Source: an uncultured Bacilli bacterium (GTDB taxonomy: Bacteria; Bacillota_I; Bacilli_A; RF39; UBA660). From it: 34,631 nt of DNA. The stretch spans positions 1-34,631 of the forward strand of contig CAKOLP010000001.1 in the NCBI GenBank assembly GCA_934096025.1, read 5' to 3'. The notes under the pieces are model-generated. The model had not been told where the DNA came from. It made no database searches and saw only the letters and a program-made list of their open reading frames with translations. The translations under genes were made by a program, and so were the position numbers. Positions 2,758 through 32,391 of this stretch are shown here, piece after piece; the first letter of the stretch is position 1; each line of letters opens with the position of its first letter.

Positions 2758-3446
2758 AATAAGGAACTATCTCCATTCTTGTAATTTATATATATTCCAT
2801 CTTGGACATTATAAACAAATATTTTAAATTTAATACCTTGGCCATTATCTTCTACCGACAGAGCTTCCATAATAACGCCAGTTGCTAATAGGTTATCATT
2901 TTCATAGACTGGAGTTACTCGATATAAGACATGATTTTTAGTGTTTCTTATATATTCTGCTACTTTATTTTCATAATCTAACATGACACCTGTATTCATT
3001 TGTCTAGTGCAAGTAATTAAATTATTGGGATTGGCATTTTCCCCGGTTAATTGATATCCGATTAAATGACAACGGTTATATAAGTATTTTCCCTCGATTA
3101 AGTCATACTTTACAGTGTGCCAGCCGGTAGGTTTAATCATACCAATAGATTTTCTTTTTTCCGTTGGCATTAAATCATAACCAATATTTGCAAAAGCTTT
3201 CGTGGCTCTATCTAAGTTATCTAAATTGTCATATTCTTCAAAACTTGTCGAAGTATCAACATTATCAAAATTAGGTTCATTATTATCTAATTCTATATAA
3301 CCTTTGCCTACATAATCCGGTATATAATTGATTGTGTAGGTTTCTTTTGTTTCATCTTTGTTAAATAAGTTATTATAGTTAAAGCTTAAAAAACTTATAA
3401 TTACTAATATGCATATAATACTTTTACTGTTTTTCTTCATAATCAT
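2754..3446 (-). CDS. Secreted or membrane-anchored DNA/RNA non-specific endonuclease (Endonuclease_NS_2 / DNA-entry-nuclease-like)
   Basis: It has an N-terminal signal/anchor (KKNSKSIICILVIISFLSF). The active-site region is NRCHLIGYQLTGENANPNNLITCTRQMN. Confidence 0.75.
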   Translation of the reverse strand: MIMKKNSKSIICILVIISFLSFNYNNLFNKDETKETYTINYIPDYVGKGYIELDNNEPNFDNVDTSTSFEEYDNLDNLDRATKAFANIGYDLMPTEKRKSIGMIKPTGWHTVKYDLIEGKYLYNRCHLIGYQLTGENANPNNLITCTRQMNTGVMLDYENKVAEYIRNTKNHVLYRVTPVYENDNLLATGVIMEALSVEDNGQGIKFKIFVYNVQDGIYINYKNGDSSLL

Positions 3447-9013: not shown

Positions 9014-9042
9014 CCTAAAAAAAAGACACGGAAATGTCTTTT
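9014..9042 (-). terminator. Rho-independent terminator closing the T4SS operon
   Basis: The minus strand reads TAA-AAGACA-TTTCCG-TGTCTT-TTTTTTAGG. That is a 7-8 bp stem, a 6-nt loop and a T-run, placed immediately at the T4CP stop codon. Confidence 0.7.
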
Positions 9043-11215: not shown

Positions 11216-11258
11216 TTCAATTCCTCATTTCTTAAACTATATTATACAATAAAATTAT

Positions 11259-12020
11259 TTAATCTTCTACAACTACTTCATATTTTTGATTATTGGATTG
11301 ATACATTACAAAACTTGGTTTATGAACATTGGAAAAGTAAGCTTTTTTAAATATAAGATTAGGTGTTTTTTGATCATTTAGCTTTATTACTGAATACAAA
11401 TGATAAGTTGGATTTAAAAGAGCATTCTTTGGTTCAATATTATTTTTTTTAATAATTGTTCTTGTTCCATTTATGTTAGTGTATAATAGATTAAAATAAC
11501 TGTTTGTCTGTTCTTCAATAAAATTATTGGCACTAATTAAATAATCCTTTATACCGTCATTATTTAAATCAACACTATATTTTGAGCAAGTAATATTGCT
11601 TAGGTCACTATAACTTTTAGATGTTAATTCATTTATAAAGTTTACATCACTTTGTAAGCATTCTTCATTTGTTATTCTTTCTATGTTATTTACAAGATTT
11701 TGTGTTGTAGCTAAAATATTATCGTCATAATTTAAGTATTTACTTTCATTTGTTAAAAAGTTCCAAGAATTTACGTATTCAGCTTTATAAATTCCTTGGT
11801 AACCTTCGTTTATATAAACAAGCATTTTGGTCGAACTATCAAAGCTACTTGGACTTTCGCTTTGCCAAGTATTATTCTCATATTTCCATAAAGTTTGCTC
11901 ACCTAAAATTAGGTATTTGGCTTCTTCAACAGCTTTATTTTGAGTTTGAGAGTAAAATAATACTATTATTATTAATATTGCTAAAATACAAATTATTATT
12001 ATTGGAACTTTTTTATTCAT
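11259..12020 (-). CDS. N-terminally anchored extracytoplasmic protein of unknown function (T4SS operon member)
   Basis: It has a single N-terminal TM helix (VPIIIICILAILIIIVLF). A DLNNDGIKDY Ca-binding-like motif is present. It sits between the hydrolase and the T4CP. Confidence 0.6.
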   Translation of the reverse strand: MNKKVPIIIICILAILIIIVLFYSQTQNKAVEEAKYLILGEQTLWKYENNTWQSESPSSFDSSTKMLVYINEGYQGIYKAEYVNSWNFLTNESKYLNYDDNILATTQNLVNNIERITNEECLQSDVNFINELTSKSYSDLSNITCSKYSVDLNNDGIKDYLISANNFIEEQTNSYFNLLYTNINGTRTIIKKNNIEPKNALLNPTYHLYSVIKLNDQKTPNLIFKKAYFSNVHKPSFVMYQSNNQKYEVVVED

Positions 12021-12032
12021 ACTTTTCCCTTT

Positions 12033-14555
12033 CTATTTAAACTTATAAGCTACAATTCTTGTTATATCCGTTAAATTATATGTATTAATTTTTCCTCCGG
12101 ATGGGTCTTTCACTACAACTTTATCACCAGATATTTCTTGGAATAAGACCCAGTGTTCTTGGATACTCTTGTTTTGTATTCTTAATAATGTAATATATTC
12201 TGCCGGACTATAATTATTGATTTTGTTAATTTTTTCTGATACTGAATATGCTCCCATTTCTATGGAAATAGCATCTGCTAGATTTGGCGCTATTTGTTTT
12301 ATAGCTGAGCAACCCCAAATAAGCCTACCATTCCCAGTAAAGCAATTTCCAGAATTCAAAGCTTTAACAAATGTCCCTGGATTTAATTCACTTACTGTCA
12401 CTTGAGTTCCTGAGCATTTTATTCCCATTGTAATCGCCGTAATTGTACAACCAGAACCGCTAACAGTATCATTACTAGATCCTAATTTATAACTTCCCCA
12501 CCTATCGTCACTTTGATTAAATAAAACACAATTTCCAGAGTCATATACTGTGCCTTTATAATTACTATCTATTCCATTTCCTCCGATACATTCATCAGAA
12601 GTAATATTAAATATTGTTTGTCTTTTTGGAATCATGTTTATATTAACTTGATACATAGAATATGCTTTTTGGTCTTCATCTGTTGTTGGCGCGCAATTAG
12701 CATCACTACATCTATTAGATTCACTACAGAAACCAGCAACTTGTGCAGATCTTGCAGTAGATAAGTATTGTTTCATATAAGGATAGTAATAACAGCCACC
12801 TTTTCCAGAGCTTCCTGGATTTGCCCATACTGAACCGATGTACGCGTACTTATTCATCATATCTGAAAGAGTGTCATATTTAGAAACTGTTTTTATAAAT
12901 CCTAAAACTCCCTCATTAAACGAACTATAGCGAATACAATCTTTACCTCCACCATTATTAGTACAGCCTATTCCATAATAATTATAATAATCACCCGGAC
13001 TATATCCCTCTACATCAGCTCTAGTTACTAAAACTTCCGGATTAATATTGTTTTTTACACAAATATCGTATATGTCTTCTGCGTGATTTATAAATTCTTT
13101 AGCATAACTTCCACTTTTTCCAGAATAATAGCTGTTTATCTTAGCTACAAAATCACTTTTTGACAATACTGTGCTTTTTAATGAAAATTCTTCACAACTA
13201 CTGCTATTGGTTATCGCAATATATTCACAATGACTAGCTAAGTCATATATTTGATATGTTGTTTCTTCATCATCTAACTGAATCGAATTTAAAATGCTTT
13301 TGTAATCTGAGCTTTCTTCACTATTTAGGGTTTCAATTAAATCTCTAGTTACATTGATAGTGTCTGATGACGGTAACTTAGATATCATATCATTATATGC
13401 TGAGGGTAAATATAAATAGTTTTCAATTTCATAATATACAGAATCAAACTCTGATTGCACTTCTGTTGGAATATCTGATTCATAGCTAACGCTGCACCCA
13501 TCAATAGATATATTTTTATTTTGACTATCGTAATTTCCCATTCCTAGGGCATTTGTTTTAACTAAAATCATTACCGCTTTTAATAATTCTGTATTATAAT
13601 CGGTTTCTTTAAGTAATGCATATGTACTTCCATATACGTAATCTTTAATTCCCATGCTAATAGATTCTTCTTCGCTTTCCTCACTACTACATGTTTTTAA
13701 ATTTACTGTCGTTAAATTATAGTTACATGCTTCGCTAAAATATCCGCCGTTATCATTATAATCGAAACCTGCTATAATAAGTATTACAATAAATATAATT
13801 ATTGCTATTCCTATAATAGCTATTATACCTGGATTAGTTAAAATAAACGCAACTATTTTTTTCCCTACACTTAAGGCAACTTTTTTTACTTTATCAGCTG
13901 CTTTTTTTTGGACTGCTTTTACTTTGGCAGCAGCTTTTTGCTCTACATTTTTGACAGCTGTTTTTGCTTTACTTTTTGCAGCATCTTTTAATGCTTCTGT
14001 TGGGTGCGTTGCATTATAAGCTTTTGCCTTTACATCATCAATTTTATTGGTTAGGGCATTTTTCTTAGCATTTGCATATTTTAGGTTATCCATTACTTGG
14101 TCCATTTTACTTTTTCTAACAGTGTTAGAACCGTCGGCTTTTACCGGAGCGTTGGCATCTTTTTTTAATTTGTGAGTTTTGCGCCTTTCATTATCTAAGT
14201 CGAAGACTTTTTGATCAAGATCTTTTTGCCTATTTTTATAGTGATTTTTATCATAAACTCCGTCACTATTTTTAGCATTATTATATTCTCTTTGCCCAAA
14301 TTTTTCTCTTTGTGCCGGAGTATTTGGTGTATCACTTAAATACTCTATATTATCTGTATCATTTACATCATTTAATTTATCATCAATTTGTAATTTTTCA
14401 TCTAAAATTGAATCTAATCTACCTAAATCCTCATCTAAATTAAAGTCATCTAAACCAACTTGAGAAGCAATTGTCCTCAAGTTGTCGGGGGAAGAATCAC
14501 CACTACCAGTGTCTAACCCTAATCGTTTAGCTTTTTCTATAATACTATTTTGCAT
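12033..14555 (-). CDS. T4SS-associated multidomain peptidoglycan hydrolase (VirB1 analogue, CwlT/PrgK/TcpG-like)
   Basis: The N-terminal region is charged (Lys/Ala-rich) and followed by one TM helix (IIAIIGIAIIIFIVILIIAGF). A tentative SpoIID-like segment reads KDYVYGSTYALL...ELLKAVMILVKTNAL. A glucosaminidase/muramidase-like segment reads INPEVLVTRADVEGY...YYGIG. The C-terminus is a C39-like/CHAP-type Cys peptidase (SGSGCTITAITMG...EHWVLF...VKDPSGG). Confidence 0.8.
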   Translation of the reverse strand: MQNSIIEKAKRLGLDTGSGDSSPDNLRTIASQVGLDDFNLDEDLGRLDSILDEKLQIDDKLNDVNDTDNIEYLSDTPNTPAQREKFGQREYNNAKNSDGVYDKNHYKNRQKDLDQKVFDLDNERRKTHKLKKDANAPVKADGSNTVRKSKMDQVMDNLKYANAKKNALTNKIDDVKAKAYNATHPTEALKDAAKSKAKTAVKNVEQKAAAKVKAVQKKAADKVKKVALSVGKKIVAFILTNPGIIAIIGIAIIIFIVILIIAGFDYNDNGGYFSEACNYNLTTVNLKTCSSEESEEESISMGIKDYVYGSTYALLKETDYNTELLKAVMILVKTNALGMGNYDSQNKNISIDGCSVSYESDIPTEVQSEFDSVYYEIENYLYLPSAYNDMISKLPSSDTINVTRDLIETLNSEESSDYKSILNSIQLDDEETTYQIYDLASHCEYIAITNSSSCEEFSLKSTVLSKSDFVAKINSYYSGKSGSYAKEFINHAEDIYDICVKNNINPEVLVTRADVEGYSPGDYYNYYGIGCTNNGGGKDCIRYSSFNEGVLGFIKTVSKYDTLSDMMNKYAYIGSVWANPGSSGKGGCYYYPYMKQYLSTARSAQVAGFCSESNRCSDANCAPTTDEDQKAYSMYQVNINMIPKRQTIFNITSDECIGGNGIDSNYKGTVYDSGNCVLFNQSDDRWGSYKLGSSNDTVSGSGCTITAITMGIKCSGTQVTVSELNPGTFVKALNSGNCFTGNGRLIWGCSAIKQIAPNLADAISIEMGAYSVSEKINKINNYSPAEYITLLRIQNKSIQEHWVLFQEISGDKVVVKDPSGGKINTYNLTDITRIVAYKFK

Positions 14556-14578
14556 AATACCTCCTTAAGGAGATGTTA

Positions 14579-16366
14579 TTAATAACCTCCACCTGATCCA
14601 AAAGAATCTAATTCTTCTTGTGTTAAAACTACTTGAATTTTCATTCTTTTGTTTCCACAAATAAATAAACCAAACCCTTGTTCATAATATTTAATTGATT
14701 CCATTTCTGATTCATTTAAATCAATTAATTTTGCTAAATCATCTACAGCTTGCTTTCTTAAATTCATTACTAAATAATAAGAGGCATTATCAAATATTGC
14801 TTTACCATGAGTAATAATATTTGGAGCAGCAAAGTCCGTAGGTTGTTGGGTAATTATAATTGTACCCGTATTATATTTTCTGCTTCTTCTTTGTATTTGA
14901 GCTAAAAATTCTGCCCCTAGTTCATTGTGTCCTGATAATAGAACATGAGCTTCATCTACCATCATAACGGTATTAAGGGATTTATCTAGGCATAAGCCCC
15001 AAGCATATTTTAATATATTAAAGAATAAAGCATTTTTAATATTTTCATCACTATTCATTAATTCTTTGATATTAAAGACGATAAAATCACTTTCAATAGA
15101 TAAAGTAGTCTTACCTGTAAAATAATATCTTAATTCTTTTACCAATGGTCTTACTTTTAATTCTAGTCTTTCTAAGACATCTCTTTCATGAGTTGCATCT
15201 GTCATACTAGTTAAATGTCCCCGTATTGTTGCATAAACATCATCAAAAGTAGGATAATCTGCACTAGTAAGCTTTGTAAAATCAGTATTGTAATCAATAC
15301 GATATCTTTTATAAGTTTCTTGTAAGACATCACTAAACATTGTTAAAACATCATCTTCGATACTCGGAGAATAATACTTCATAAAAGCTTTTACTTGTTG
15401 TAAAGTTCTTGTTAAAACTGTATACCCTAACCCTTGAGCTATTTCTTCTTCGTCCGTATCTATTACTATTTCTAGGGGATTAATCATCCCAAAAGTTCCA
15501 CCTTTACCTAAATCAAGGAAGTCACCGCCAAGAGAATGACACATTTCTCCTAGTTCACCCTCTGGATCTACACAAACTACTTTAAAGCCATTACGTATAT
15601 GTGTTCTAAGTAGTACTTTTGCAGCAGTTGACTTACCACTACCAGATGTACCAAGTAAAATTATATTGGCATTATTTCTATTATTTTCTTTTCTTATTTG
15701 GAATAAAAATTGATTAAATAATATTACTCCACCAGACCAGTCAACTCCAAGAAGTGTTGCATTTCCTGGGTCCTTTATACTATCAAATATAAATGGATAC
15801 ATGGCAGCTACAGTAACTGAGGGAATCGGTGTTCCAATACGATTTTCGATATCTTGTGGTGGGAAAATTGGCAATATTGATTTTAAAGCTTTTTCTTGTT
15901 CAAACATTAATGCAACAGCACGCATACCTAAAGCATCAAGATAACTTCGAACTTGGATTTTTCTTAGTTCTAATTCTTCTTTATTATCTGCAGTAATCAT
16001 TAAGTGCATTTGAAAGTCAAAAATTCTTGCTTGTGTTGCTGCTAGCATTTGAATGAATTGCTCTAAAGATTCATAGTCTTGTCTAATACGTTCTTGCATA
16101 GTATTATCTTTTTCACTTTGATATCTTACTTTTAAATCTGCTATTTCCTTATTTAACATTTTTTGTAAAACACTAAAAGGAATTGTCATATGTTTAATAG
16201 CTATTTTTACCCCTTGTAAATTCGTAATATCTGATAAAAATCCTGGCACAATATTTCTTGGAAAAGCTATTACAGTAAGAATTGTAGAATATTTTCCTCC
16301 AAGTACAAATTCTGTTGGTTTAAACTCCATTCCTTTTGGAGCTACTTCACTTTTAAGTTTACTCAT
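14579..16366 (-). CDS. VirB4-family T4SS ATPase, C-terminal (ATPase) portion
   Basis: The Walker A motif is LLGTSGSGKST and the Walker B motif is MMVDEAHVLL. The segment IIITQQPTDF is also present. At 595 aa it is about 200 aa shorter than typical Gram-positive VirB4 proteins. Confidence 0.9.
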   Translation of the reverse strand: MSKLKSEVAPKGMEFKPTEFVLGGKYSTILTVIAFPRNIVPGFLSDITNLQGVKIAIKHMTIPFSVLQKMLNKEIADLKVRYQSEKDNTMQERIRQDYESLEQFIQMLAATQARIFDFQMHLMITADNKEELELRKIQVRSYLDALGMRAVALMFEQEKALKSILPIFPPQDIENRIGTPIPSVTVAAMYPFIFDSIKDPGNATLLGVDWSGGVILFNQFLFQIRKENNRNNANIILLGTSGSGKSTAAKVLLRTHIRNGFKVVCVDPEGELGEMCHSLGGDFLDLGKGGTFGMINPLEIVIDTDEEEIAQGLGYTVLTRTLQQVKAFMKYYSPSIEDDVLTMFSDVLQETYKRYRIDYNTDFTKLTSADYPTFDDVYATIRGHLTSMTDATHERDVLERLELKVRPLVKELRYYFTGKTTLSIESDFIVFNIKELMNSDENIKNALFFNILKYAWGLCLDKSLNTVMMVDEAHVLLSGHNELGAEFLAQIQRRSRKYNTGTIIITQQPTDFAAPNIITHGKAIFDNASYYLVMNLRKQAVDDLAKLIDLNESEMESIKYYEQGFGLFICGNKRMKIQVVLTQEELDSFGSGGGY

Positions 16367-16367
16367 A

Positions 16368-16913
16368 CTACATCACCGCCCCAAATTTAGTTGTTTCTCC
16401 CCCATTTAAGAAGTTATCTAATATTACTCTTAAGTCATTGTTTGATGTTTGGGTAGATTGCAAGCCAGCACTAGCTAAGCCACTAATTAAATTATGTAGT
16501 TTCTTTTGCACTAGCTCTAATCTTTTTTCTTTAAATAAAATATAATATTCTGTATCAACAACATTATACTCACTACTCATAAATAGGTTAGCTTTATTAA
16601 TATCTTGCATAATTAATTTTTTAGCTATATTTGTCGTAGCGTTATTATACATAAGTTGTAATTGTGATAAATAAACATCTATATCAACAGGTCTATCAGC
16701 TATTAGAAGCCAAAAATCATAGTCAATACTATTATAAAAATTTCTAAGTTGATATATCGTATTGTTTTGAGTTCCTTGATCCATTATAAATATGTTTTTA
16801 GGAGTTACTTTTACTCCGGTTACATACATACCGTCATCTAATTGGATCATACCGTTCATAATTTGTCTTATTGGTAACCAATCTTCCGTATAATTTCTAT
16901 TCATCTCTGTCAT
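16368..16913 (-). CDS. VirB4 N-terminal domain encoded as a separate ORF
   Basis: The sequence DWLPIRQIMNGMIQLDDGMYVTGVKVTPKNIF resembles the N-termini of ConE/Orf16-type VirB4 proteins. Its stop (16368-16370) lies 1 nt from the next ATG (16364-16366), in a different frame. Confidence 0.65.
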   Translation of the reverse strand: MTEMNRNYTEDWLPIRQIMNGMIQLDDGMYVTGVKVTPKNIFIMDQGTQNNTIYQLRNFYNSIDYDFWLLIADRPVDIDVYLSQLQLMYNNATTNIAKKLIMQDINKANLFMSSEYNVVDTEYYILFKEKRLELVQKKLHNLISGLASAGLQSTQTSNNDLRVILDNFLNGGETTKFGAVM

Positions 16914-17211
16914 CTTTACAACACCAACCTTTCCAATAATATCTGCGAGGATTAAATATAAAACTAAATATGTTTATTATAAATTGTAATACATTGTGAT
17001 AGTACATTACCGGCGTTACTAGAAAACCTGTAATTAATGCCGGCAATAGAATAACTATCATTTGTGGTAATGAGGCGTGTTGTATTAATATTAACAAAAG
17101 TACCGTAAGCCCACAGCCAAATCCAAATAGCATTAAATCCGTCGGTGTAAAAAAGCCTAAAATCAATTGGGACTTTTTAGCATTTGCTGGTATCAAATAG
17201 TTATTATTCAT
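16897..17211 (-). CDS. PrgI / VirB3-like small membrane protein
   Basis: The protein is 104 aa and begins IPANAKKSQLILGFFTPTDLMLFGFG, followed by two TM helices. It lies directly upstream of VirB4 and overlaps it by 17 nt. Confidence 0.6.
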   Translation of the reverse strand: MNNNYLIPANAKKSQLILGFFTPTDLMLFGFGCGLTVLLLILIQHASLPQMIVILLPALITGFLVTPVMYYHNVLQFIINIFSFIFNPRRYYWKGWCCKDDRDE

Positions 17212-17231
17212 TCCTTTTCATTCCTTTCATA

Positions 17232-19712
17232 TTATTTGCTATCGCCACCACTTTTATTGGCACGTGCAAGTTTTTCAAATTCGGCATCTATATCAATATT
17301 TCTATCTTTCATCAATGTAATTAAATTATCAAAGGCATCAAAAGCATCTTGACCTGATAATTCTGATAATGGCGTAGTTCCAGGCGGCATATATTTTTCA
17401 TATAATGCAGAAATAACTGCCACATTTTCTTGCAATAAGTTGTTAACATTGGTTTTAGAAGAAGCAATTTTACTCCACCGTTGATTATCTCCTCCGCCAA
17501 AACTAAGTTGGGCATTGTTTAACGCTTCATTAGCTAAGTAATCAGCCACTTTATCTTTAGCATCATTATATTGTGCTTGTAACTTGTTCATGTAGTCATT
17601 ATATTGTGCTTGACTATTAATTACTATATCATTTCCATTAAAGTCTTTTACAGTTTTACCATTGACAGCGGCAAATGAAATAGTATTTAATTCCATTTCC
17701 ATATCGCCTAAAGATCTTACACATGGACTACCAGCTGAGGCAACAATACTTGCATTGTGAGCAACTGAGTTTAACATTTCATCTCTATGGGTTGCTTGGT
17801 AATTCACTTGCTTATTATTAATATCTGCTTGCATTTTATTGAAGCCGTCTTCTTGGAAAGCATAAGTTTTTAGATATTTTTTCAAATTTCTTTCAGATGT
17901 TGATAATTGATTTTTTAAATTTGCTAAATAATTTGAATAATCTAACTCACTATTAATAGCTATTTCATTACCGTTGAAGTCTCTAACTTTTTTACCAATG
18001 ATATCTTGAACATTACTTTTTCTCATTATATCTAAATGTTCATGCATAGCATCTAAAGACATATTAGGTCCCCCAGATGCTAAAACTAGTGCAGCGTTTT
18101 GACTAACTGCTTCCCGAGTTATTAAATCATCAACAACATTTCCTATCTTATCGTCTTCATTCAAGAATTTTTTATATGAATCTCTTTCGCTTTGCAAAGC
18201 ACTGTAGGAAGCATCAATGCCTAGATATGACTTAACAGCATCAGCTCTATCTCCCGCTGCATTCCATACTAAATTACTGGCATTTTGAAGCATTCCCATA
18301 GCTCCTGGAACGTATTTACCTGAAGCTTTATATCTTGCCCAATTTTCAGCTCTATTTCCACGTGCTTCTGTTGCAGCATCAACAGCTCCTCCTGCAGCTT
18401 TACGAACATCTGAAAAGTTTTTAGCTCCCCTTGCTCTATTTCCACCTCTAATAAAACCAGAAGCAGCACCAGCTCCAGCAGATAATACACCGCCCACTAT
18501 AGCTTTGCCTTTATTTCCAAGGCCTTTAGCCTCTTTAACTTTCTTTCCTGCAGCTACAGCATTTCTTGCTAAAGTTCCTGCAGCACCACCTACAGCACTA
18601 GCTGCAAGCAATCCACCACCAGCAGCAAGTTTTTCTCTTAAACCAAGTTTCATACCACCAGTATCAAGACCGAATAAATCGCCAAGAAGTTTAGGTATTT
18701 GTTTTATAAACATAACTACAGCCATAATTAAAATTGCTCGTACAAAAGTCGGTTGTAAAAAACCACTAAGTCCACCACTTTCACTTATTGTAGCTAGTGC
18801 TTCACTATTAACTATTATATTTATCATTTTTATACCAAAAGCTATAGCTCCGATTCTAATAAAGACTTCAACAAACAAGCTTATTATTTGTTTTACCCAT
18901 TTAGAAAATACGTCTTTAAGCTTTCCTCCTGGAACAACACGACAAACCACTGGTATCGGAGCAATTATTTGATAAAAAGCTAATTTTATCGTTCTTAGAG
19001 CCATATCAAAACAGAAGTTAAGAAGTACATATAATACAAATCCTCCAGCTATTGTTGATATTGGCCAGTAGTAATTAAGTTTACTATTATCATCATTCAA
19101 TTCTTTAGCTAGTTTTCCGTATTGCCCAAATGATGCACCATTATAAACTCTTGTATCAATACTTTTTAATGTATCATCGCCCGATCCTATACTTTCTGTA
19201 CACTCATCAGAAGCATCTAAAATATTTTCCGAACAACCGTCTTCTCCTAATTTAGGACTAAAAAATGCTCTAAATGTATAAAAAGCTATATCATTACCGC
19301 CTTTATTAATCAAGTCTTCTTCATTGCCATTTGTAGTATTGTCACTTAAAATAATCTTTGTTATCGTGCCTTGATTTAATAAAGCACTTTGAACATTAAA
19401 TACAAATCCAAAAATTGTTGGCAATACTGCCAAAATTACTAAAGAAACTACTACATTTTGGATAAGCTTAGGAAACGAACTTTCTCCCTTAGCAAAATTA
19501 TCCGGATTTATAACAGCCTTTAAAAGTGAATATGCTAGCACAAATAGCATTACTAAACCAATAACTATATATACTCTATTAGCTAAGTCTGTATATTCAT
19601 CCATTCCAAATAAATTGATTTTTGTTAAAGCAATAAAAATCTCATAAATATAACGAACAAAATTATATATTACACCATCTAACCACAACAAAAATTTATA
19701 AATAATATCCAT
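17232..19712 (-). CDS. VirB6-like polytopic T4SS channel protein with Gly/Ala-rich linker and duplicated C-terminal module
   Basis: Multiple TM helices occupy the first ~370 aa. A GGGLLAASAVGGAAG... stretch follows. Two ~85-aa repeats then occur (...KKVRDFNGNEIAINSELDYSNYL... and ...KTVKDFNGNDIVINSQAQYNDYM...). Confidence 0.7.
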   Translation of the reverse strand: MDIIYKFLLWLDGVIYNFVRYIYEIFIALTKINLFGMDEYTDLANRVYIVIGLVMLFVLAYSLLKAVINPDNFAKGESSFPKLIQNVVVSLVILAVLPTIFGFVFNVQSALLNQGTITKIILSDNTTNGNEEDLINKGGNDIAFYTFRAFFSPKLGEDGCSENILDASDECTESIGSGDDTLKSIDTRVYNGASFGQYGKLAKELNDDNSKLNYYWPISTIAGGFVLYVLLNFCFDMALRTIKLAFYQIIAPIPVVCRVVPGGKLKDVFSKWVKQIISLFVEVFIRIGAIAFGIKMINIIVNSEALATISESGGLSGFLQPTFVRAILIMAVVMFIKQIPKLLGDLFGLDTGGMKLGLREKLAAGGGLLAASAVGGAAGTLARNAVAAGKKVKEAKGLGNKGKAIVGGVLSAGAGAASGFIRGGNRARGAKNFSDVRKAAGGAVDAATEARGNRAENWARYKASGKYVPGAMGMLQNASNLVWNAAGDRADAVKSYLGIDASYSALQSERDSYKKFLNEDDKIGNVVDDLITREAVSQNAALVLASGGPNMSLDAMHEHLDIMRKSNVQDIIGKKVRDFNGNEIAINSELDYSNYLANLKNQLSTSERNLKKYLKTYAFQEDGFNKMQADINNKQVNYQATHRDEMLNSVAHNASIVASAGSPCVRSLGDMEMELNTISFAAVNGKTVKDFNGNDIVINSQAQYNDYMNKLQAQYNDAKDKVADYLANEALNNAQLSFGGGDNQRWSKIASSKTNVNNLLQENVAVISALYEKYMPPGTTPLSELSGQDAFDAFDNLITLMKDRNIDIDAEFEKLARANKSGGDSK

Positions 19713-24233: not shown

Positions 24234-24830
24234 TTAAATATTATAATAAATCTTTTTGAAAATTAAGTTTATATCCGAAAATTTTACATTTGAAGCTGCT
24301 AATCCCCCTAGAACTTCTACATTAACACTGTATTTAGTATCTTCTTCTATTCTTAATAAAATGGTTTGATAAAAATGCATTATTTTGCCCTCGCCTTGTT
24401 CTAGTTTAAAATACAAATCTTTTACAGAAGTTTGGTTTTCATCTTGTAAATAGACTACTCCGCCATGGGCATTATCGGCGCCACTTATAAATGCCGTTAG
24501 GGTTATTTCATATATGCCCGGTTTAATTAAAACTTCATTATCATTTACTATTTCAAAATAAGCACTAGTATTTGGAATTAGCCAAGGCTCATTAATAATT
24601 AAAGCTCCCTCATTTGTGGTATCTAGAAAACTTGTGTAAAACATACTTTCTGTTGAAGCCGGAAAATTAATGGCATCACGACCTGGATCTCCTTTTGGAC
24701 CTTGCTCTCCTTGAAGCCCTATAGGACCTTGTGGGCCAGTCGGACCAACAAGAGTACAGATTAAACCTAAATCGAGTAATTCTTTTCTTAAATTTTGTTT
24801 TTCTTTTATTTTATTACAAAGATTTTGCAT
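24234..24830 (-). CDS. Collagen-like (G-X-Y) protein with beta-rich C-terminal globular domain, BclA-type architecture
   Basis: The collagen stretch is GPTGPQGPIGLQGEQGPKGDPG, preceded by LLDLGLICTLV. There is no signal peptide. The C-terminal domain is paralogous to that of 25468-26400. Confidence 0.8.
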   Translation of the reverse strand: MQNLCNKIKEKQNLRKELLDLGLICTLVGPTGPQGPIGLQGEQGPKGDPGRDAINFPASTESMFYTSFLDTTNEGALIINEPWLIPNTSAYFEIVNDNEVLIKPGIYEITLTAFISGADNAHGGVVYLQDENQTSVKDLYFKLEQGEGKIMHFYQTILLRIEEDTKYSVNVEVLGGLAASNVKFSDINLIFKKIYYNI

Positions 24831-25467: not shown

Positions 25468-26400
25468 CTACATGTGGATTTTTTTTATGAGAAGATTTAT
25501 ATCATTTATTTTAACTTGAGATGAAGCCGCTTCACCAAGTATTCCTGCCATAACTTGTAGAGTTGTTTGTGTATCAAATTCGTGCATTACATTTTGGGAA
25601 AAATGCATTTGTGGAGTGGAACCCCCGGCTAGTTTAAAGGATAAATCCATTATTACTTTATTATTACTATATTTTAAATAAAATATCCCCCCATGAGTGG
25701 CATCTACTTCCTCGATAGCTCCAGAAAATGCTATTTCATACATTCCAGGCTGTACCACTATATCAGTGTTACTAGTTTGTTTGAAGTATTCAGAATCTAT
25801 TGGAATAATATTTATATCTTGAATACGGACATCTCCGGAAATATTTACTTCGGCATAACTAGCAAACAGTATTCCCTCGGTTGTACCTGTAGGCACTGGC
25901 CCCATTTCTCCGGGTTCGCCTTGCACCCCTTGGTCACCTTTTTCCCCTTTTGGTATATTTATTGTTAGGTTATGTGTAAGATTAATGAAGTCATCTTCGA
26001 CATATGCTTTTTCCCCAGGATTTAAAGTATTAGTATCTACTATATTAATTATTTCGCACTCACCGTCTTGCCCATTTGCTCCAGCTGGACCTGGCATGCC
26101 TTGATCTCCCTTATCGCCTTTTTCTCCGGGCATACCTTGGTCTCCTTTTATTGAACCTGTATCTTTCCAAATTCCGTCTTTTTCACTCCATATATATAAA
26201 TTAGAATTAACTAAGTATGCATCACCAGTTTTACCTAAAGGGTGATTTTCTATTAATTCATCTTCACTTTTATAATAATCAATTATGTTTATTCCCTCAC
26301 CTCGAGGGCCTGTTGGGCCAATAATTTGACAACATAAACCTAGATTAAGTAATTCTTGTCTTTTTTGTTGTAGTTTTTTTACTTCTTCACATTTACTCAT
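25468..26400 (-). CDS. Collagen-like protein with BclA-type architecture (two G-X-Y blocks + C-terminal globular domain)
   Basis: I prefer the ATG at 26400 (MSKCEEVKK..., GGAG 8 nt upstream) over the track start at 26439. The collagen blocks are GPTGPRGEG, GDQGMPGEKGDKGDQGMPGPAGANGQDG and GEKGDQGVQGEPGEMGP. Confidence 0.8.
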   Translation of the reverse strand: MSKCEEVKKLQQKRQELLNLGLCCQIIGPTGPRGEGINIIDYYKSEDELIENHPLGKTGDAYLVNSNLYIWSEKDGIWKDTGSIKGDQGMPGEKGDKGDQGMPGPAGANGQDGECEIINIVDTNTLNPGEKAYVEDDFINLTHNLTINIPKGEKGDQGVQGEPGEMGPVPTGTTEGILFASYAEVNISGDVRIQDINIIPIDSEYFKQTSNTDIVVQPGMYEIAFSGAIEEVDATHGGIFYLKYSNNKVIMDLSFKLAGGSTPQMHFSQNVMHEFDTQTTLQVMAGILGEAASSQVKINDINLLIKKIHM

Positions 26401-26559
26401 TAGATCAACTCCATATATTAAAATATGAAAAAAATACATTAAATGTTAAAAACATGGACAAGTATCATATACAAGTCCAAGTTTTGAGAATAAATTATAA
26501 GTGAAAGAAGTTATTAACTTCTTAAATTAACTCTTTATGAGAGAAAGGGATGAATATTA

Positions 26560-26820
26560 ATGAACAACATGTGTAAAGCTGAACAAAAAATTAATGCGTA
26601 TAATAAGGCTAACCCCAATGTTACATTTACTTGTTTTGGACCTACGGGACCTACAGGACCTGCTGGAGCTAGTATCCGTGTTGGTGTTACTACTACGACT
26701 AATCCAGGTACTAATGCCAGTGTTGTTAATGTTGGTACTCCGTCGAATGCTGTTTTAGACTTCTATATACCAGCTGGAGCTACGGGCGCCACTGGACCAA
26801 CCGGACCAACTGCTCGATAA
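26560..26820 (+). CDS. 5' segment of a split collagen-like (BclA-type) gene, truncated by the inserted element
   Basis: The ORF has an RBS and ATG, and contains [11 protein letters not shown] ... GATGATGPTGPTAR. It runs into a TAA supplied by the first bases of the inserted element. Confidence 0.8.
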   Translation: MNNMCKAEQKINAYNKANPNVTFTCFGPTGPTGPAGASIRVGVTTTTNPGTNASVVNVGTPSNAVLDFYIPAGATGATGPTGPTAR

Positions 26821-26830
26821 ATTAAATCAT
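26814..26830. repeat. Left terminal inverted repeat / attL core of the intervening element
   Basis: TCGATAAATTAAATCAT has the reverse complement ATGATTTAATTTATCGA. That matches 29710-29726 at 16 of 17 positions. Confidence 0.85.
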
Positions 26831-28845
26831 ATTATAAAATTCCATATAATTTTTATATTTCTAGTATTTGTTAATTCGTTATATTTTCCTACTATAATTT
26901 TTTCTACAAAAGTTTCAACTAATTCAACAGTTAGTTTATCAAAATTTTTATGTTCTTGAAAAATATTTGTTACTTCATTTTTCTGTTTAGTGATAACAGA
27001 TGTTATTTCATTTTGAATTATTCTTTGTTCAGTTTCCAATTTTTCATATTCTTCTTCATATTTTTTTAAAAGCACTTCAAATTCTTTTAAAGAAAGTATT
27101 TTATTTACACGGTCTAGGTATAAATTTTGAAAATAATTCTCTTTTAACTGCAAATGTTTATTAATATTTTCTAGCTCTTGCTCTAAGTAAGGCAACCTAT
27201 CACTCGAGAAATTATGGCTATTTTGTTCTTTACTTAGTTTATTTATTATTTCTTTATCATAGAATCTACTTAGCATATTGTTTATTTTTTCTAGTATGAA
27301 TTTTTGGAGTGTTTCTTCTTTAACAGACATTTTATTATCACAATTAGACCATTTTGTCTTTTTATCTTTACAACATAAATACCCTAGGCCACTAGAAGTG
27401 TTGCTTCCAGTTTTAATGAATAATTGATTACAATTTGCACAATATACTTTGTTACATAAAGGGTGTATTTTACCTTGGTTGCAGCTTCGAGTTCTATTCG
27501 ATAATCTAACCTGGACTTTATCCCATATGTTTTTGTCTATAATTTTTTCATGGGTATTTTCTTTTCTGATTCTTTTTTCAGCTCCATTTTTTATTAAAGT
27601 ATGGTTTTTATAACTCACTGTAGTTGTTTTAAATTGCACCATATTGCCTGTGTATACTTCATCTGTAAGTATTTTCCTAATAGTGGAACTAGACCATTTA
27701 AATTTTTTTCTTATATTATATGTAAAGTATGAGTTAGTCAATTGTTGATAAGCTTTATTAGCAATATTTATAAAGAGCTTTTTATGTTCTTTATTTTCTT
27801 TTAATTTTATTTCTAGTTGGTAATTAAGAAAATGGGTTCTATCAAGATTTTTAGTATAAGAAATAATTGCTTTAGTATGTTTAGGCAATGTTTCATTTTC
27901 ACTAATGCTTACACAATCTTTTATATTTAGGTTGTCCAATGTTATGTTTTCTTTTGTACTATAATATATTTGGGTTTTATTTGTTTTTCTTAAAATAATA
28001 TCACATTTACTAAATATGCTTGATAAATCTATAAGACTAACTAAATCCTTTAAGATTGCTGGTTCTTTATTAGTAAAATTTATATCTACTATGTAAGTTC
28101 CTGATTGTACAATATAACTATAATTTAAATAATTTTTTAAAACCGGTAACTTAAGTTTACTCCCTTGCATCAACTTATATTCGTATGGACTTAGTATATT
28201 ATCTTTATTCAAATTCTGGGCTATTTGGTCTAGACCTATACCCGATAAATACTCATTATATATTCTTTTAATAATTAAAGAGGGAAAAACATCAATAATT
28301 AAATGATTTTTATTTTCTGGGTCTTTTTTGTATCCATAAGTAGCAAAACTTGATGTTAGCTTTCCCTCTTTTCTTTTAGCCTTTAGTGTTTCGCGAATAT
28401 TTAGTGATGTATCTTCTAGGTACCATTCATCTGTTAAACTAAGAATTTGACTTGTTTTTTTAGTTTCTTTTTTAGTATTATCTATTTTATCCACGACTGT
28501 TATAAAGCGAACTTGCCATTCATGAAACAAATTATGAACATATTTTTCCACTAGTTCCATGTCTCTGGCAAACCTTGCTTGTGTTTTGCATAAAACTATA
28601 TCAATATTTCCGTTTTGACATTCCCTTATCATTTTGTTAAAATCTGGTCTTGAAATGTCTGAACCTGACCAATCTTCATCATTATAAACTTTTATTACAT
28701 TGAATCCTTGTTCTAAAGCATAATTACGTAACATTATTTCTTGATTTTTAATGCTTTCGGATAATTCTTCTTTAGATAATTTGTTCTTGTCTTCATCTGA
28801 TAATCGTAAATATAAAGCTGTTTTATTTCTATATTTAGTCGTCAT
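26827..28845 (-). CDS. Large serine recombinase (resolvase/invertase N-domain + recombinase domain + zinc ribbon + coiled coil)
   Basis: The catalytic region is ALYLRLSDEDK, with LCKTQARFARD downstream. The recombinase domain includes YGYKKDPEN...RIYNEYLSGIGLDQIAQNLN. Cys clusters are CNKVYCANC...CCKDKKTKWSNC. The C-terminus is a long coiled coil. Confidence 0.92.
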   Translation of the reverse strand: MTTKYRNKTALYLRLSDEDKNKLSKEELSESIKNQEIMLRNYALEQGFNVIKVYNDEDWSGSDISRPDFNKMIRECQNGNIDIVLCKTQARFARDMELVEKYVHNLFHEWQVRFITVVDKIDNTKKETKKTSQILSLTDEWYLEDTSLNIRETLKAKRKEGKLTSSFATYGYKKDPENKNHLIIDVFPSLIIKRIYNEYLSGIGLDQIAQNLNKDNILSPYEYKLMQGSKLKLPVLKNYLNYSYIVQSGTYIVDINFTNKEPAILKDLVSLIDLSSIFSKCDIILRKTNKTQIYYSTKENITLDNLNIKDCVSISENETLPKHTKAIISYTKNLDRTHFLNYQLEIKLKENKEHKKLFINIANKAYQQLTNSYFTYNIRKKFKWSSSTIRKILTDEVYTGNMVQFKTTTVSYKNHTLIKNGAEKRIRKENTHEKIIDKNIWDKVQVRLSNRTRSCNQGKIHPLCNKVYCANCNQLFIKTGSNTSSGLGYLCCKDKKTKWSNCDNKMSVKEETLQKFILEKINNMLSRFYDKEIINKLSKEQNSHNFSSDRLPYLEQELENINKHLQLKENYFQNLYLDRVNKILSLKEFEVLLKKYEEEYEKLETEQRIIQNEITSVITKQKNEVTNIFQEHKNFDKLTVELVETFVEKIIVGKYNELTNTRNIKIIWNFII

Positions 28846-28978
28846 ATGATTGCCCCGTTTTATTGTTAATACTATTTATATATTTAAAATACTTTTTATT
28901 AAATATAAGTTTTAAATTATCTATGTTATTATTTGTTTTATATTCTTCGGTGTAATTAAATTTTATTTCTTTTTTCAA
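28835..28978 (-). CDS. Possible 47-aa upstream ORF overlapping the recombinase start
   Basis: This is hand-translated: a TTG start is preceded by AAAGGTGA. The ORF reads (M)KKEIKFNYTEEYKTNNNIDNLKLIFNKKYFKYINSINNKTGQSYDD. Its stop overlaps the recombinase ATG region (TATGACGACTAA). It falls below the track threshold. Confidence 0.25.
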   Translation of the reverse strand: MKKEIKFNYTEEYKTNNNIDNLKLIFNKKYFKYINSINNKTGQSYDD

Positions 28979-29287
28979 AATAATCACCTTTACTAATTTA
29001 ATTTATGAATTGTTATTTTGTTTGGAACTAGCAAAGCTAATTATTTAAAATTTATTTTTGTTAAAAAAATTATATTTAGTTTTAAAATTGACTTATAACA
29101 TAAAATTTAATATATTAGTAATACATTTATATTTTTTATGCATAAACGTTAACTTTCGAGTGACGTTAGGAATAATATACTTGATTGTAATTATTCGAAA
29201 TACTTTATATTAAGTAATTTTTATGTATAAGAATTCTAAAAATAAAAAATATTTTAATTAAATTTCAAAAAGAAAGCTGGGATAAAT

Positions 29288-29710
29288 ATGTTTAAGATTG
29301 CAAAACTACAAAATGTAAATAATGAAAAAGTTAATATCAATACTTGTGGAATAACTGAAATTAAATTTGAAAATGGAAAAAAAGCATATTCTAATGATTA
29401 TAAAGCTTTAAGTTTTCAAGTTAATGGAGATAATTATTCTTTTGAATTTACATTAAATTGTAAACTTGAAGAACTATTAAAAATACCGGAGGATACCCCG
29501 ATAGATTTTAAGGATTACATGACTTCAAGTGAGCTAACGGTTCAAGAAGAATTATATTTTCCCCAAATAGACGCAACAGCTACTCGGTATTTAAAAACGA
29601 AGTTTAGTATTTTTGTAGCATTTTATATTGATCATTGTTTTGATGTTGACGATATTTATAGCGGTATGATTGAATTTAGCTTTAATTTGGCTGATTATTT
29701 AGAAGATTAA
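29288..29710 (+). CDS. Hypothetical 140-aa acidic protein, only non-recombinase cargo of the element
   Basis: The ORF has an RBS (AAAGCTGGGATAAAT-ATG). Its stop abuts the right inverted repeat. I recognised no motif. Confidence 0.65.
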
Positions 29711-29726
29711 TGATTTATTTTATCGA
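29710..29726. repeat. Right terminal inverted repeat / attR core of the intervening element
   Basis: ATGATTTATTTTATCGA pairs with 26814-26830. Confidence 0.85.
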
Positions 29727-30323
29727 GGAACTGGACCTACTGGTCCTACAGGGGCTCAGGGGGCTCAAGGAACAGCTGGGGTACAAGGGCCTCAAGGATT
29801 AGCAGGGCCTACTGGGCCAACGGGACCTACCGGCCCTACTGGGCCAGCAGGACCAGCAGGACCAGCCGGTGCACAAGGGGAACAAGGAGAAGAAGGAACT
29901 CCAGCTATAACAGCGTATTCATATAAATATGAAAATGGAACAGAAGACTATACCTTAACACAAAATACAGCAACTCAAGTGTTATTAAGTGAAGTTGGTT
30001 CAAATAGTAATGTTAATAATGCAGGAACTAATACTTTTACAATTACTACTCCTGGGGTTTACAAAATAGATTATTTCTTCTTAGGGTCTTCCTCAGTGCA
30101 AACTAATTTAACTTTATCAGTTAGACAAAATAACACTGCTATTACGGGTTCAGAGATTGAAAAAGAAGTACAGGCTAGTACTGAAGAAAGTATCAATGGC
30201 TCTGTAGTTGCTAGTTTATCAAATAATGATACTATTGATTTGGCTATATCTTCCACTACTAATGCTACGGTAACACCTGGCGATGATACAAATGCCTATA
30301 TGGTTTTACTAAGAATTGGATAA
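29727..30323 (+). CDS. 3' segment of the split collagen-like gene (G-X-Y repeats + C-terminal globular domain), no start of its own
   Basis: The frame is open from 29703 and reads [57 protein letters not shown], then a beta-rich domain. It is in the same frame as track ORF 29979-30323. No ATG or RBS precedes the repeats. Confidence 0.8.
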
Positions 30324-30484
30324 CTTTAATTTTTACTTACTTTAAACATTGATAAATTTTATAATCTAACATTTCCTTACTTGTAATTTTACAAAAGCTT
30401 TCTTTCTAAACTTTTATGAAGAAAATGATTCTTAAAAAAATTGTTTTCTTCAATTCATTTAAAAAAGCTAAAGAATAACCTTAG

Positions 30485-31953: not shown

Positions 31954-32391
31954 TCACTTATGATATGTTTCATTATTAATAATTTTAAAACTACGATATA
32001 TTTGTTCTAACAAAATTCCTCTAAATAATCCATGTGGAAAAGTCATCTTTGAAAAGCTAATTAATTCTTGACAAGTATTTCTTATTTCGTCATTTAGCCC
32101 ATTTGACCCACCGATTATAAAAGTAATATTTCCATATTTCATTAGATAATTATCTATTTTTTGGGCAAATTCCGTACTTGTAAAACTTTTTTTGTTTAAA
32201 TCTAAACCTATGTTATAGTCTTTTGTATTGATATTTTTGATTAAGGTTTCTATTTCTTTTTGATAGTTAACATTATCTTTTAATTCTATTATTTCTATTT
32301 TGTGATATTTATTAATCCTTTTTTGATAATCATTAATTAGCTCAGTTAAATAAGGTTCTTTTATCTTTCCTACACATAATATTTTTATCAT
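31954..32391 (-). CDS. rlmH: 23S rRNA (pseudouridine1915-N3)-methyltransferase RlmH (SPOUT)
   Basis: The protein is 145 aa. It contains the motifs FIIGGSNGL and SFSKMTFPHGLFRGILLEQIYRSF. Confidence 0.9.
   Translation of the reverse strand: MIKILCVGKIKEPYLTELINDYQKRINKYHKIEIIELKDNVNYQKEIETLIKNINTKDYNIGLDLNKKSFTSTEFAQKIDNYLMKYGNITFIIGGSNGLNDEIRNTCQELISFSKMTFPHGLFRGILLEQIYRSFKIINNETYHK

Follow-up and report, generated by a model that had tools for sequence, protein, structure and literature searches.

Large serine recombinases (LSRs) act on several intervening elements found in mother-cell genes of spore-forming bacteria, namely skin in sigK (SpoIVCA) and SPbeta in spsM (SprA/SprB) of Bacillus subtilis, and skinCd of C. 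difficile. All three are of prophage origin, some of them reduced to remnants, and measure 14-134 kb. Elements of this gene-intervening type, which also include vfbin and gin, interrupt a coding sequence, encode their own site-specific recombinase and restore the open reading frame (ORF) upon precise excision. The same holds for the subject of this report, a 2,921-bp element in a 34,631-nucleotide stretch of contig CAKOLP010000001.1 (hereafter the window) from an uncultured RF39 bacterium of the Bacilli. The element splits a gene for a collagen-like protein with a BclA_C-type globular domain. We take it, with a probability of roughly 0.85, to be an integrated, apparently intact, non-phage mobile cassette belonging to one clade of LSRs and inserted in DNA that encodes Gly-Pro-Thr repeats, whose scarless exit would restore the gene.

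An earlier note on this DNA had likened the locus to skin. The idea of a gene split by a near-minimal LSR cassette, with excision restoring the ORF, has held up; the picture of a one-off domesticated remnant has given way to that of a large mobile family. The recombinases of skin, SPbeta and skinCd are only distantly related to the one in the window, their hosts are proven spore formers in which sigma-E or sigma-K control has been mapped, and none of them interrupts a collagen-like or exosporium gene. In SPbeta (SprB) and skinCd, directionality is set by a small factor, for which a 47-residue ORF is the candidate here. SPbeta also illustrates that an active mobile element can be developmentally excised.

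A non-phage counterpart is gin, which resides in gerE of Bacillus cereus ATCC 10987 and carries the recombinase GirC together with GirX, a known directionality factor of 42 amino acids (aa) in which a recognised motif is absent (PMC5595907). Like the window element, gin sits inside a small late-sporulation-type gene, combines a serine recombinase with a very small factor that has no recognised motif, displays an attP-type inverted repeat around a central dinucleotide, and allows the ORF to be restored without a scar. It differs in size, with 31 genes and three recombinases against three ORFs in 2.9 kb here, and in target, since gin has one target gene while the present family has a repeat motif found in many collagen-like genes, several times per genome. 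In addition, excision during sporulation has been demonstrated experimentally for gin, whereas the window element is known from sequence alone.

Turning to clostridia, Tn4451/Tn4453 (TnpX) and Tn5397 (TndX) are likewise small non-phage elements that are moved by an LSR via a circular form and carry accessory (resistance) cargo. The catalytic domain of TnpX (2MHC) is the solved structure closest by sequence to the window recombinase, and the C-terminal DUF4368 domain detected in the latter is one that we take to be typical of the TnpX/TndX group. TnpX and TndX act at a GA dinucleotide in loosely defined targets that resemble the joint of the element, and to our knowledge TnpX needs no directionality factor. 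Here, in contrast, the core is AC and lies in a well-defined attB that encodes (Gly-Pro-Thr)n and differs from the AT-rich palindromic attP beyond the core-proximal bases. No mobilisation gene is present either. With neither a GA core nor joint-like targets, assignment to the TnpX/TndX-type serine transposons was rejected.

The SCC elements of staphylococci (CcrA/CcrB) are comparable as non-phage, non-conjugative cassettes with variable cargo that LSRs insert at one conserved chromosomal site. They employ two recombinases where the window element has one, they have no collagen target, and their attB at the 3' end of rlmH leaves that gene undisrupted. In the window, rlmH (31954-32391) is intact and lies 1.6 kb from the element. 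CcrB is the best NCBIfam model for the window recombinase at 93.5 bits against a cut-off of 900, and this score, the single recombinase and the intact rlmH led to the rejection of an SCC element. The element is an integrative, gene-intervening and LSR-mobilised one in which the target class and a minimal two-protein core are new. Full-text literature searches did not turn up any recombinase element described in a collagen-like or bclA gene, as the earlier note had supposed, and the recombinase family in uncultured gut Bacilli is apparently undescribed.

The split gene and its crossover core

Positions that the earlier note gave for the two halves of the gene proved accurate. The 5' ORF (26560-26820) encodes 86 aa ending in ...GPTGPTAR (GATGATGPTGPTAR), with its TAA stop at 26818-26820. 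The 3' half lies in a frame open from 29703 to 30323 that contains 18 Gly-X-Y triplets followed by the globular C-terminus; no in-frame start codon is present between 29703 and the repeats, so the 3' segment has no start of its own. Neither half contains a stop or a frameshift. Joining 26560-26810 to 29732-30323 at the AC dinucleotide gives a coding sequence of 843 nt for a protein of 280 aa, in which the Gly-X-Y run continues unbroken across the junction (...GATGATGPTGP/..., the slash marking the join). Because more than 100 full-length homologues of 236-315 aa, each a single ORF, cover 99-100% of the joined protein, the two pieces are one gene. Uninterrupted orthologues in relatives, which the earlier note had suggested looking for, exist as single genes. 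The 5' fragment is 86-88% identical to its sister-species orthologue, and the globular domain of the 3' segment is 72-80% identical to sister-species fragments P0002 and P0003.

The pentanucleotide AACTG occurs at both junctions (26808-26812 and 29729-29733), with AC as its central dinucleotide and 2,921 bp between the copies. The attachment sites built around it are presented in Table 1 along with the other features of the locus. In the rebuilt attP, ATGATTTATTTTATCGAGGA-AC-TGCTCGATAAATTAAATCAT, the inverted-repeat arms match at 18/20 positions, while the window attB reads GGACCA-AC-TGGACC. This arrangement is not a matter of chance, as the longest inverted repeat in 26500-30400 (26794-26830 against 29710-29746, 37 nt, 78% complementary) brackets the element.

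Natural empty sites locate the core. Sister-species proteins, retrieved by a cluster look-up of the 86-aa fragment, comprise a 94-aa 5' fragment, 205-aa 3' fragments and an uninterrupted protein of 274 aa. The intact allele is present on three contigs and has the same neighbours as in the window, a 310-aa collagen-like gene upstream and UDG downstream, with neighbouring proteins 68-87% identical to those of the window. AACTG is the sole sequence common to the attB, attL and attR of the sister species. Because the empty sites place it there, AACTG with central AC is read as the real crossover core. In the sister-species attR, the 17 nt adjacent to the junction (ATGATTTATTTTATCGA) are identical in loci L001 and L003, and the DNA further inside differs.

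The earlier note had located the crossover in TCGA, which is indeed present at 26814-26817 and 29723-29726. Its arithmetic is sound: position 29727 lies 252 nt upstream of, and in frame with, 29979, and the join yields a 284-aa protein that passes the Pfam cut-offs for Collagen (PF01391, 36.4 bits; cut-off 27.2) and for BclA_C (PF18573, 42.6 bits; cut-off 38), a C1q/TNF-like domain. The CG-centred palindrome is decent (14/15 per half-site) and the join is in frame, yet TCGA was rejected as the crossover. Its central dinucleotide would be palindromic, and the join disrupts the Gly-X-Y phase with an 'ARGT' that is missing from the sister-species intact allele. Moreover, no protein or DNA with that junction was found and the natural empty sites contradict it. 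The TCGA copies form part of the palindromic attP arms, the one at 26814-26817 falling inside the P' arm. Relative to the AACTG core, the junctions of the earlier note are off by 12 nt, and its element of 2,909 bp and product of 284 aa become 2,921 bp and 280 aa. The predicted attB junction after excision is CCGGACCAACTGGACCTACTGG and the predicted circular attP junction is TTTATCGAGGAACTGCTCGATAAA.

Table 1. Features of the window and attachment sites of the sister species (a slash marks the junction)
Feature	Position	Strand	Remarks
Split gene, 5' segment	26560-26810	+	ends with the central AC of the core
Split gene, 3' segment	29732-30323	+	about 18 Gly-X-Y triplets and BclA_C-type globular domain
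attL	26789-26830		B arm 26789-26808 (...GGACCAACCGGACCA); AC 26809-26810; P' arm 26811-26830 (TGCTCGATAAATTAAATCAT)
attR	29710-29751		P arm 29710-29729 (ATGATTTATTTTATCGAGGA); AC 29730-29731; B' arm 29732-29751 (TGGACCTACTGGTCCTACAG)
Large serine recombinase	26827-28845	-	672 aa; stop codon inside P' arm
Conserved 47-aa ORF	28835-28978	-	TTG start after Shine-Dalgarno-like AAAGGTGA; 11-nt overlap with recombinase start
Leader motif CATAAATTAAATTAG	28993-29007	-	in leader of the small-ORF/recombinase operon
Cargo ORF	29288-29710	+	140 aa; divergent from the recombinase operon; stop codon abuts P arm
Intact collagen-like gene	25468-26400	-	310 aa; about 23% identity to the split gene, architecture alike
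Intact short collagen-like gene	24234-24830	-	198 aa; about 23% identity to the split gene, architecture alike
Type IV coupling protein	9041-11215	-	
VirB4/TraG-like ATPase	14579-16366	-	
TcpE match	16897-17211	-	weak, below cut-off
Sister-species attB (intact allele)			...CAAGGTCCAACTG/GTCCAACAGG...
Sister-species attL			...GGTCCAACTG/CCCGATGTAATAAATCAT
Sister-species attR			...TTTTATCGAGGAACTG/GTCCAACAGG...

Contents of the element

The insert has a G+C content of 24%, compared with 29% for the whole window. Pfam bears out the large serine recombinase proposed in the earlier note: Resolvase (PF00239) scores 81.3 bits (cut-off 23.3), the Recombinase domain (PF07508), which contains a family-specific insertion, 66.3 bits (cut-off 21.1), and DUF4368, part of a coiled-coil/DUF4368 tail, 26.1 bits (cut-off 25), with Zn_ribbon_recom (PF13408) just under its cut-off of 25.3 at 24.7 bits. 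The catalytic motif is YLRLSDED. Residue R14, the catalytic serine S16 and the zinc-ribbon cysteines C469, C472, C492 and C502 are invariant in an alignment of 24 family members, and the window recombinase retains every residue that is invariant in that alignment. It also matches the PHROG 'integrase' family phrog_95.

The same note had the element carrying almost nothing besides the recombinase; a 140-aa ORF and the conserved 47-aa ORF are present as well. The latter has the motif F.Y.EE(F/Y)KT...LK.IFNKKYF.YI, and a hidden Markov model derived from 13 copies detects a homologue immediately upstream of the recombinase in 83/90 loci; all but one of the remaining seven lack the recombinase or its 5' end. 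No family in Pfam, PHROG or PADLOC was matched. Its position, size and conservation make it a candidate directionality factor or accessory subunit.

The family of the 140-aa ORF is small, comprising 45 clusters at 50% identity. The AlphaFold model of the ORF is confident (mean pLDDT 88.9) and all-beta, and a comparison with the PDB found no structural relative (best E 0.1, TM no higher than 0.45). As a directionality factor it was rejected: it is not conserved in sister elements and, among related loci, appears only in L013, where it lies outside the element.

In the leader of the small-ORF/recombinase operon, related elements retain the CATAAATTAAATTAG motif as ...GTATCAAAT...CATAAGTTAAATTAGGAACTAT...ATAGTTCTTTTTT, with a terminator-like hairpin that is missing from the window copy. 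The motif is found in 16/57 non-redundant upstream regions against 2.8% of random windows, the sequences coming from related clades and so not being independent. In L010-L017, L033-L040, L049-L051, L062, L076 and L087 the leader lies about 40-130 nt upstream of the small ORF, with the hairpin immediately preceding the ribosome-binding site. Pairing between the 3' arm of this hairpin and an upstream AGAACTATGG is possible in the L033 type and would hint at an attenuator. Rfam gave no match, either for the window or for three related loci, and a sigma-70 promoter scan performed no better than on shuffled sequence.

A recombinase family aimed at Gly-Pro-Thr codons

Relatives were sought by scanning one genome per GTDB species, which yielded 170, of which 80 were kept, almost all of them from metagenome-assembled genomes (MAGs) of uncultured gut 'Bacilli', 'Mollicutes' or 'Tenericutes'. 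Recombinase homologues number more than 2,000, and hosts of the clade are low-G+C, uncultured gut Bacilli with RF39-, 'Mollicutes'- or 'Tenericutes'-like labels. The window recombinase forms a lineage of its own and shares 64-65% identity with the nearest relatives. Several genomes contain more than one copy of the family.

Nearly every locus has the same layout, with the recombinase stop followed within about 45 nt by the conserved end of the element and then by collagen-type codons. At least three Gly-X-Y triplets occur within 150 nt of the recombinase stop in 52/75 testable loci, compared with 3.1% of random windows. Where both ends of an element in a collagen-like gene fall within the locus (12 cases), the AC join is in frame every time and gives a continuous Gly-X-Y run and a complete gene. 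AC is the core in all 12, and both halves of all 12 interrupted target genes are intact. The family attB consensus, GGnCCAACnGGnCCn-AC-nGGnCCnACnGGnCC, encodes consecutive Gly-Pro-Thr triplets, and elements occur in either orientation relative to the target gene. All seven (GPT)3-type sites of the window fall within the split gene. In L013 (around 2954-3000), a type-A element follows the first GPTGPTGPT run of a split-gene homologue, a position that corresponds to an unoccupied attB-like site at 26638-26660 of the window.

The restored target proteins have Cys-rich N-termini. NCBIfam exosporium-leader models did not match them at E <=0.01, the resemblance to such leaders being limited to a loose C-x-(L/I/V)-GPTGP motif, and family-model scans revealed no signal peptide or wall anchor match.

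Some members of the family are found elsewhere. A sub-clade comprising L067, L072, L078, L079 and L085, with recombinases 46-47% identical, lies outside collagen genes, where the flank after the recombinase stop, ...GCACCAACnGGnGCnCTnGA..., reads APTGALD(S). This string presumably resembles a motif of ABC-transporter ATPases. The two coding motifs share CCAACnGG, and the sub-clade suggests target switching between them. Clear inverted-repeat ends in non-collagen sequence are also seen for the family members at L039 (1333-12045) and L062 (497-5558). The former has a 10-bp shared core region (GAAACTAC-type) and encodes proteins of 1,042 and 855 aa with faint JetC-like and LmuB-like matches; the latter adjoins a GGGGGAAAC/CTCCCCC hairpin.

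Empty sites and movement between species

Two comparisons reveal an empty attB identical to the product expected of conservative recombination in sister elements, namely L092-L094 against L095 and L001, and P0296 and L103 against L010. For L010, the predicted restored protein of 311 aa is present exactly in public data, and its empty and occupied loci are collinear and 98.5-99.5% identical in nucleotide sequence, the former cleanly lacking the element. Polymorphism between occupied and empty sites occurs within species.

Copies sharing 93-95% identity with the recombinase of the sister species (L095) reside in different collagen-like genes of six other GTDB species representatives (L010-L013, L015, L016 and L087, two of which share a MAG), and two species representatives have recombinases that are 100% identical. 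Elements of the family range from 2.9 to about 12 kb. Among their cargo are a GNAT acetyltransferase, an APH-type kinase, a radical-SAM/SPASM enzyme accompanied by an RlmA-like (rRNA-methyltransferase-like) methyltransferase, an ECF-type sigma factor, and Ham1 (ITPase), kinase, phosphoribosyltransferase and GreA-like genes, which include genes of nucleotide metabolism. Since near-identical recombinases occur in different genes and species alongside variable cargo, the family appears to consist of active mobile elements. Among the 2.9 million contigs of IMG/VR there were six matches to the family, all distant, and identity to recombinases of sequenced phages and plasmids is at most 35% (at most 33% for sequenced phages).

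The window element and that of the sister species occupy the same site. As their recombinases are only about 65% identical, the shared site reflects independent hits on one hot spot and not common descent, the more so since L095 is 93-95% identical to copies elsewhere. The split halves have dN/dS values of 0.03-0.19 at dS >1. Purifying selection on the halves was considered as a sign of rescue by excision and was discarded, the insertions being independent and possibly recent.

Two further observations concern sister loci. The 3' fragment of the split collagen-like gene is shorter in L004 (10145-12213) than in L005 (10145-10828), at 142 against 227 aa, owing to the nested insertion of an unrelated second element, in which a 542-aa serine recombinase is accompanied by RecA-like and DnaB-like genes. 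The cargo region of the sister element in L003 contains a direct repeat of about 40 nt in two copies (GATCATTTATTGCTCGCACCAC..GAAGCGATTAACATTT; 2158-2250).

Excision and its possible triggers

For a mobile cassette of this kind, the recombinase would pair a near-palindromic attP with an attB that encodes (Gly-Pro-Thr)n and would exchange strands at the AC of a Thr codon. With the element integrated, the BclA_C-type protein cannot be made, as translation of the 5' part ends at 86 aa and a start codon is missing from the 3' part. Conservative recombination between attL and attR would remove the element scarlessly and yield the 280-aa protein with its collagen repeat unbroken. The anatomy, the core, the target preference of the family, the scarless empty sites of the sister species and the horizontal spread are all legible in the DNA itself. 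The window copy looks functional, with its full-length recombinase, intact cores and arms, and open gene halves. We infer that it may still be active, that the 47-aa protein could serve as its directionality factor, and what might trigger excision.

Several observations weigh against this interpretation. Mobility is seen in sister lineages and not in that of the window, and the five contigs of this species all show the interruption. About 15 billion public proteins do not include the exact 280-aa restored protein, and neither the AC nor the TCGA version of the attP junction was found in IMG/VR. The role proposed for the 47-aa ORF derives solely from position, size and conservation, and the element contains no transfer or mobilisation gene. 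The interrupted alleles, the only ones seen for this species, would also fit a dead insertion, with the element fixed as a fossil and the collagen-like gene reduced to a pseudogene, as would a recombinase lineage without close relatives. Such a fossil is nonetheless quite improbable given a full-length recombinase ORF with all family-invariant residues, identical AACTG cores at both att sites, arms matching at 18/20 positions and gene halves without stops or frameshifts. In contig L106 the recombinase seemed to have a deletion, which proved to be a run of N's in a scaffold gap. A prophage, or the remnant of one, in the manner of skin or SPbeta, to which the phrog_95 match could point, is very unlikely indeed: phage structural, lysis and replication genes are absent from the element and from sister elements of up to 12 kb, and the IMG/VR and sequenced-phage comparisons given above (six distant relatives; at most 33% identity) leave little room for it. 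Somewhat less remote, and still improbable, is a population-level on/off switch, whereby occasional vegetative excision, possibly with re-integration, would create subpopulations with or without a collagen-like surface protein and so permit, for example, escape from phage or host immunity. Collagen-like surface proteins are typical variable antigens, occupied and empty alleles with flanks 98.5-99.5% identical coexist within species, two family copies are present in several genomes, and most of the family lies in collagen-like genes, such that combinatorial variation is conceivable. However, a circle without replication genes would not persist after excision, making the switch one-way only; no sample was found to hold both forms of one strain; and the target proteins show no signal peptide or wall anchor match.

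As to the trigger, ordinary mobile-element behaviour, with sporadic or transfer-linked excision and the gene off in carriers, is on balance what we would expect, and there is a small chance of something else, such as the population-level switch. Excision in the sporulating mother cell is a tentative possibility that is compatible with a mobile cassette and not opposed to it, as SPbeta illustrates. A mother-cell sigma factor would switch on the recombinase and/or the 47-aa factor, the gene would be rebuilt only in the terminal mother cell, and the spore would keep the interrupted copy. The architecture invites this comparison, with a recombinase inside a coding sequence, scarless restoration and a small candidate directionality factor as in skin, SPbeta and gin. 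RF39 is predicted to form spores (PMC10868615), and the target combines BclA_C with collagen repeats, by analogy with bclA1-3 of C. difficile, which depend on sigma-K (PMC3789822). The whole family prefers collagen-like genes, insertion into which would be cost-free in a spore former; the restored proteins have Cys-rich N-termini, and all 12 interrupted genes examined keep both halves intact. Two contigs with family members, each from a related MAG, also encode sigma factors, a full-length one in L049 (best NCBIfam model SigG, 335 bits) and a partial one in L058 (best model SigK, 171 bits over half its length), but these come from other species and score below the curated cut-offs. The sigK-like gene of L058 (3-389, minus strand) is cut off near residue 132 by the contig edge; skin elements classically target sigK. 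A CATA-type motif, CATAA(A/G)TTA, precedes the small-ORF/recombinase operon, but it is not accompanied by a convincing -35 element (AC or ATA), is confined to related clades and is a string that AT-rich DNA yields readily. No convincing sigma-E or sigma-K promoter was found upstream of the split gene or of the recombinase operon, and no recognisable sporulation gene is present in the 34.6-kb window. Approximate B. subtilis queries for Spo0A, SpoIVA, SpoIIID, SpoVT, SspA and SpoVS gave no convincing match in about 1.3 Mb of related loci, a sample too small to weigh; sigma-factor queries alone matched, and one Spo0A match covered the receiver domain only at 28% identity. Element-free alleles lie on contigs of up to 52 kb and therefore indicate strain polymorphism rather than a mother-cell subpopulation. 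The APH, GNAT and methyltransferase cargo is typical of ordinary mobile elements, the exosporium-leader family was not detected in the target proteins, and the argument from purifying selection fails with independent insertions by recombinase lineages 65% identical.

Neighbourhood of the split gene

The earlier note had described the two intact collagen-like genes next to the split gene as its paralogues. They are alike in architecture, with low identity to the split gene (Table 1). The promoter region of the split gene (26450-26500) is highly conserved with respect to L092, L093 and L095 despite saturated synonymous sites. It contains ATGGACAAGTATCATAT(A/G)CAAGTCCA with a direct ACAAGT repeat, a stretch that may be the binding site of a regulator.

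Seven kilobases from the split gene, a conjugation-type gene run extends over 9041-19712 on the minus strand, where large unannotated proteins accompany those listed in Table 1. This run is probably an integrative conjugative element and could act as a vehicle for small cassettes.

Significance

With a natural attB that is a short, near-palindromic coding repeat, the clade constitutes a recombinase family with a predictable target. Dozens of natural sets of attP, attB, attL and attR can be recovered from public data; these would help in understanding how LSRs read their sites and provide a source of new integrases. For genome annotation, many collagen-like genes of uncultured gut Bacilli will be recorded as fragments or pseudogenes though what interrupts them is a removable element. 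Genes for GNAT, APH-like and methyltransferase proteins and for nucleotide metabolism also travel between species on elements of 3-12 kb that have no recognisable transfer genes.

Should excision be linked to sporulation, programmed rearrangement would then be known from exosporium genes and from an uncultured lineage as well, and the element would offer a minimal two-protein system to dissect. In the fullest form of that scenario, which we put forward with some reserve, several exosporium-type collagen genes per genome would be kept split in the germ line of this whole reduced-genome lineage and joined up only in the terminal mother cell, through the recombinase and the 47-aa factor. If so, the 2.9-kb element would be the smallest gene-intervening element known, and the family would be the first group of mobile elements specialised on one class of late-sporulation genes, by way of their Gly-Pro-Thr repeat DNA.

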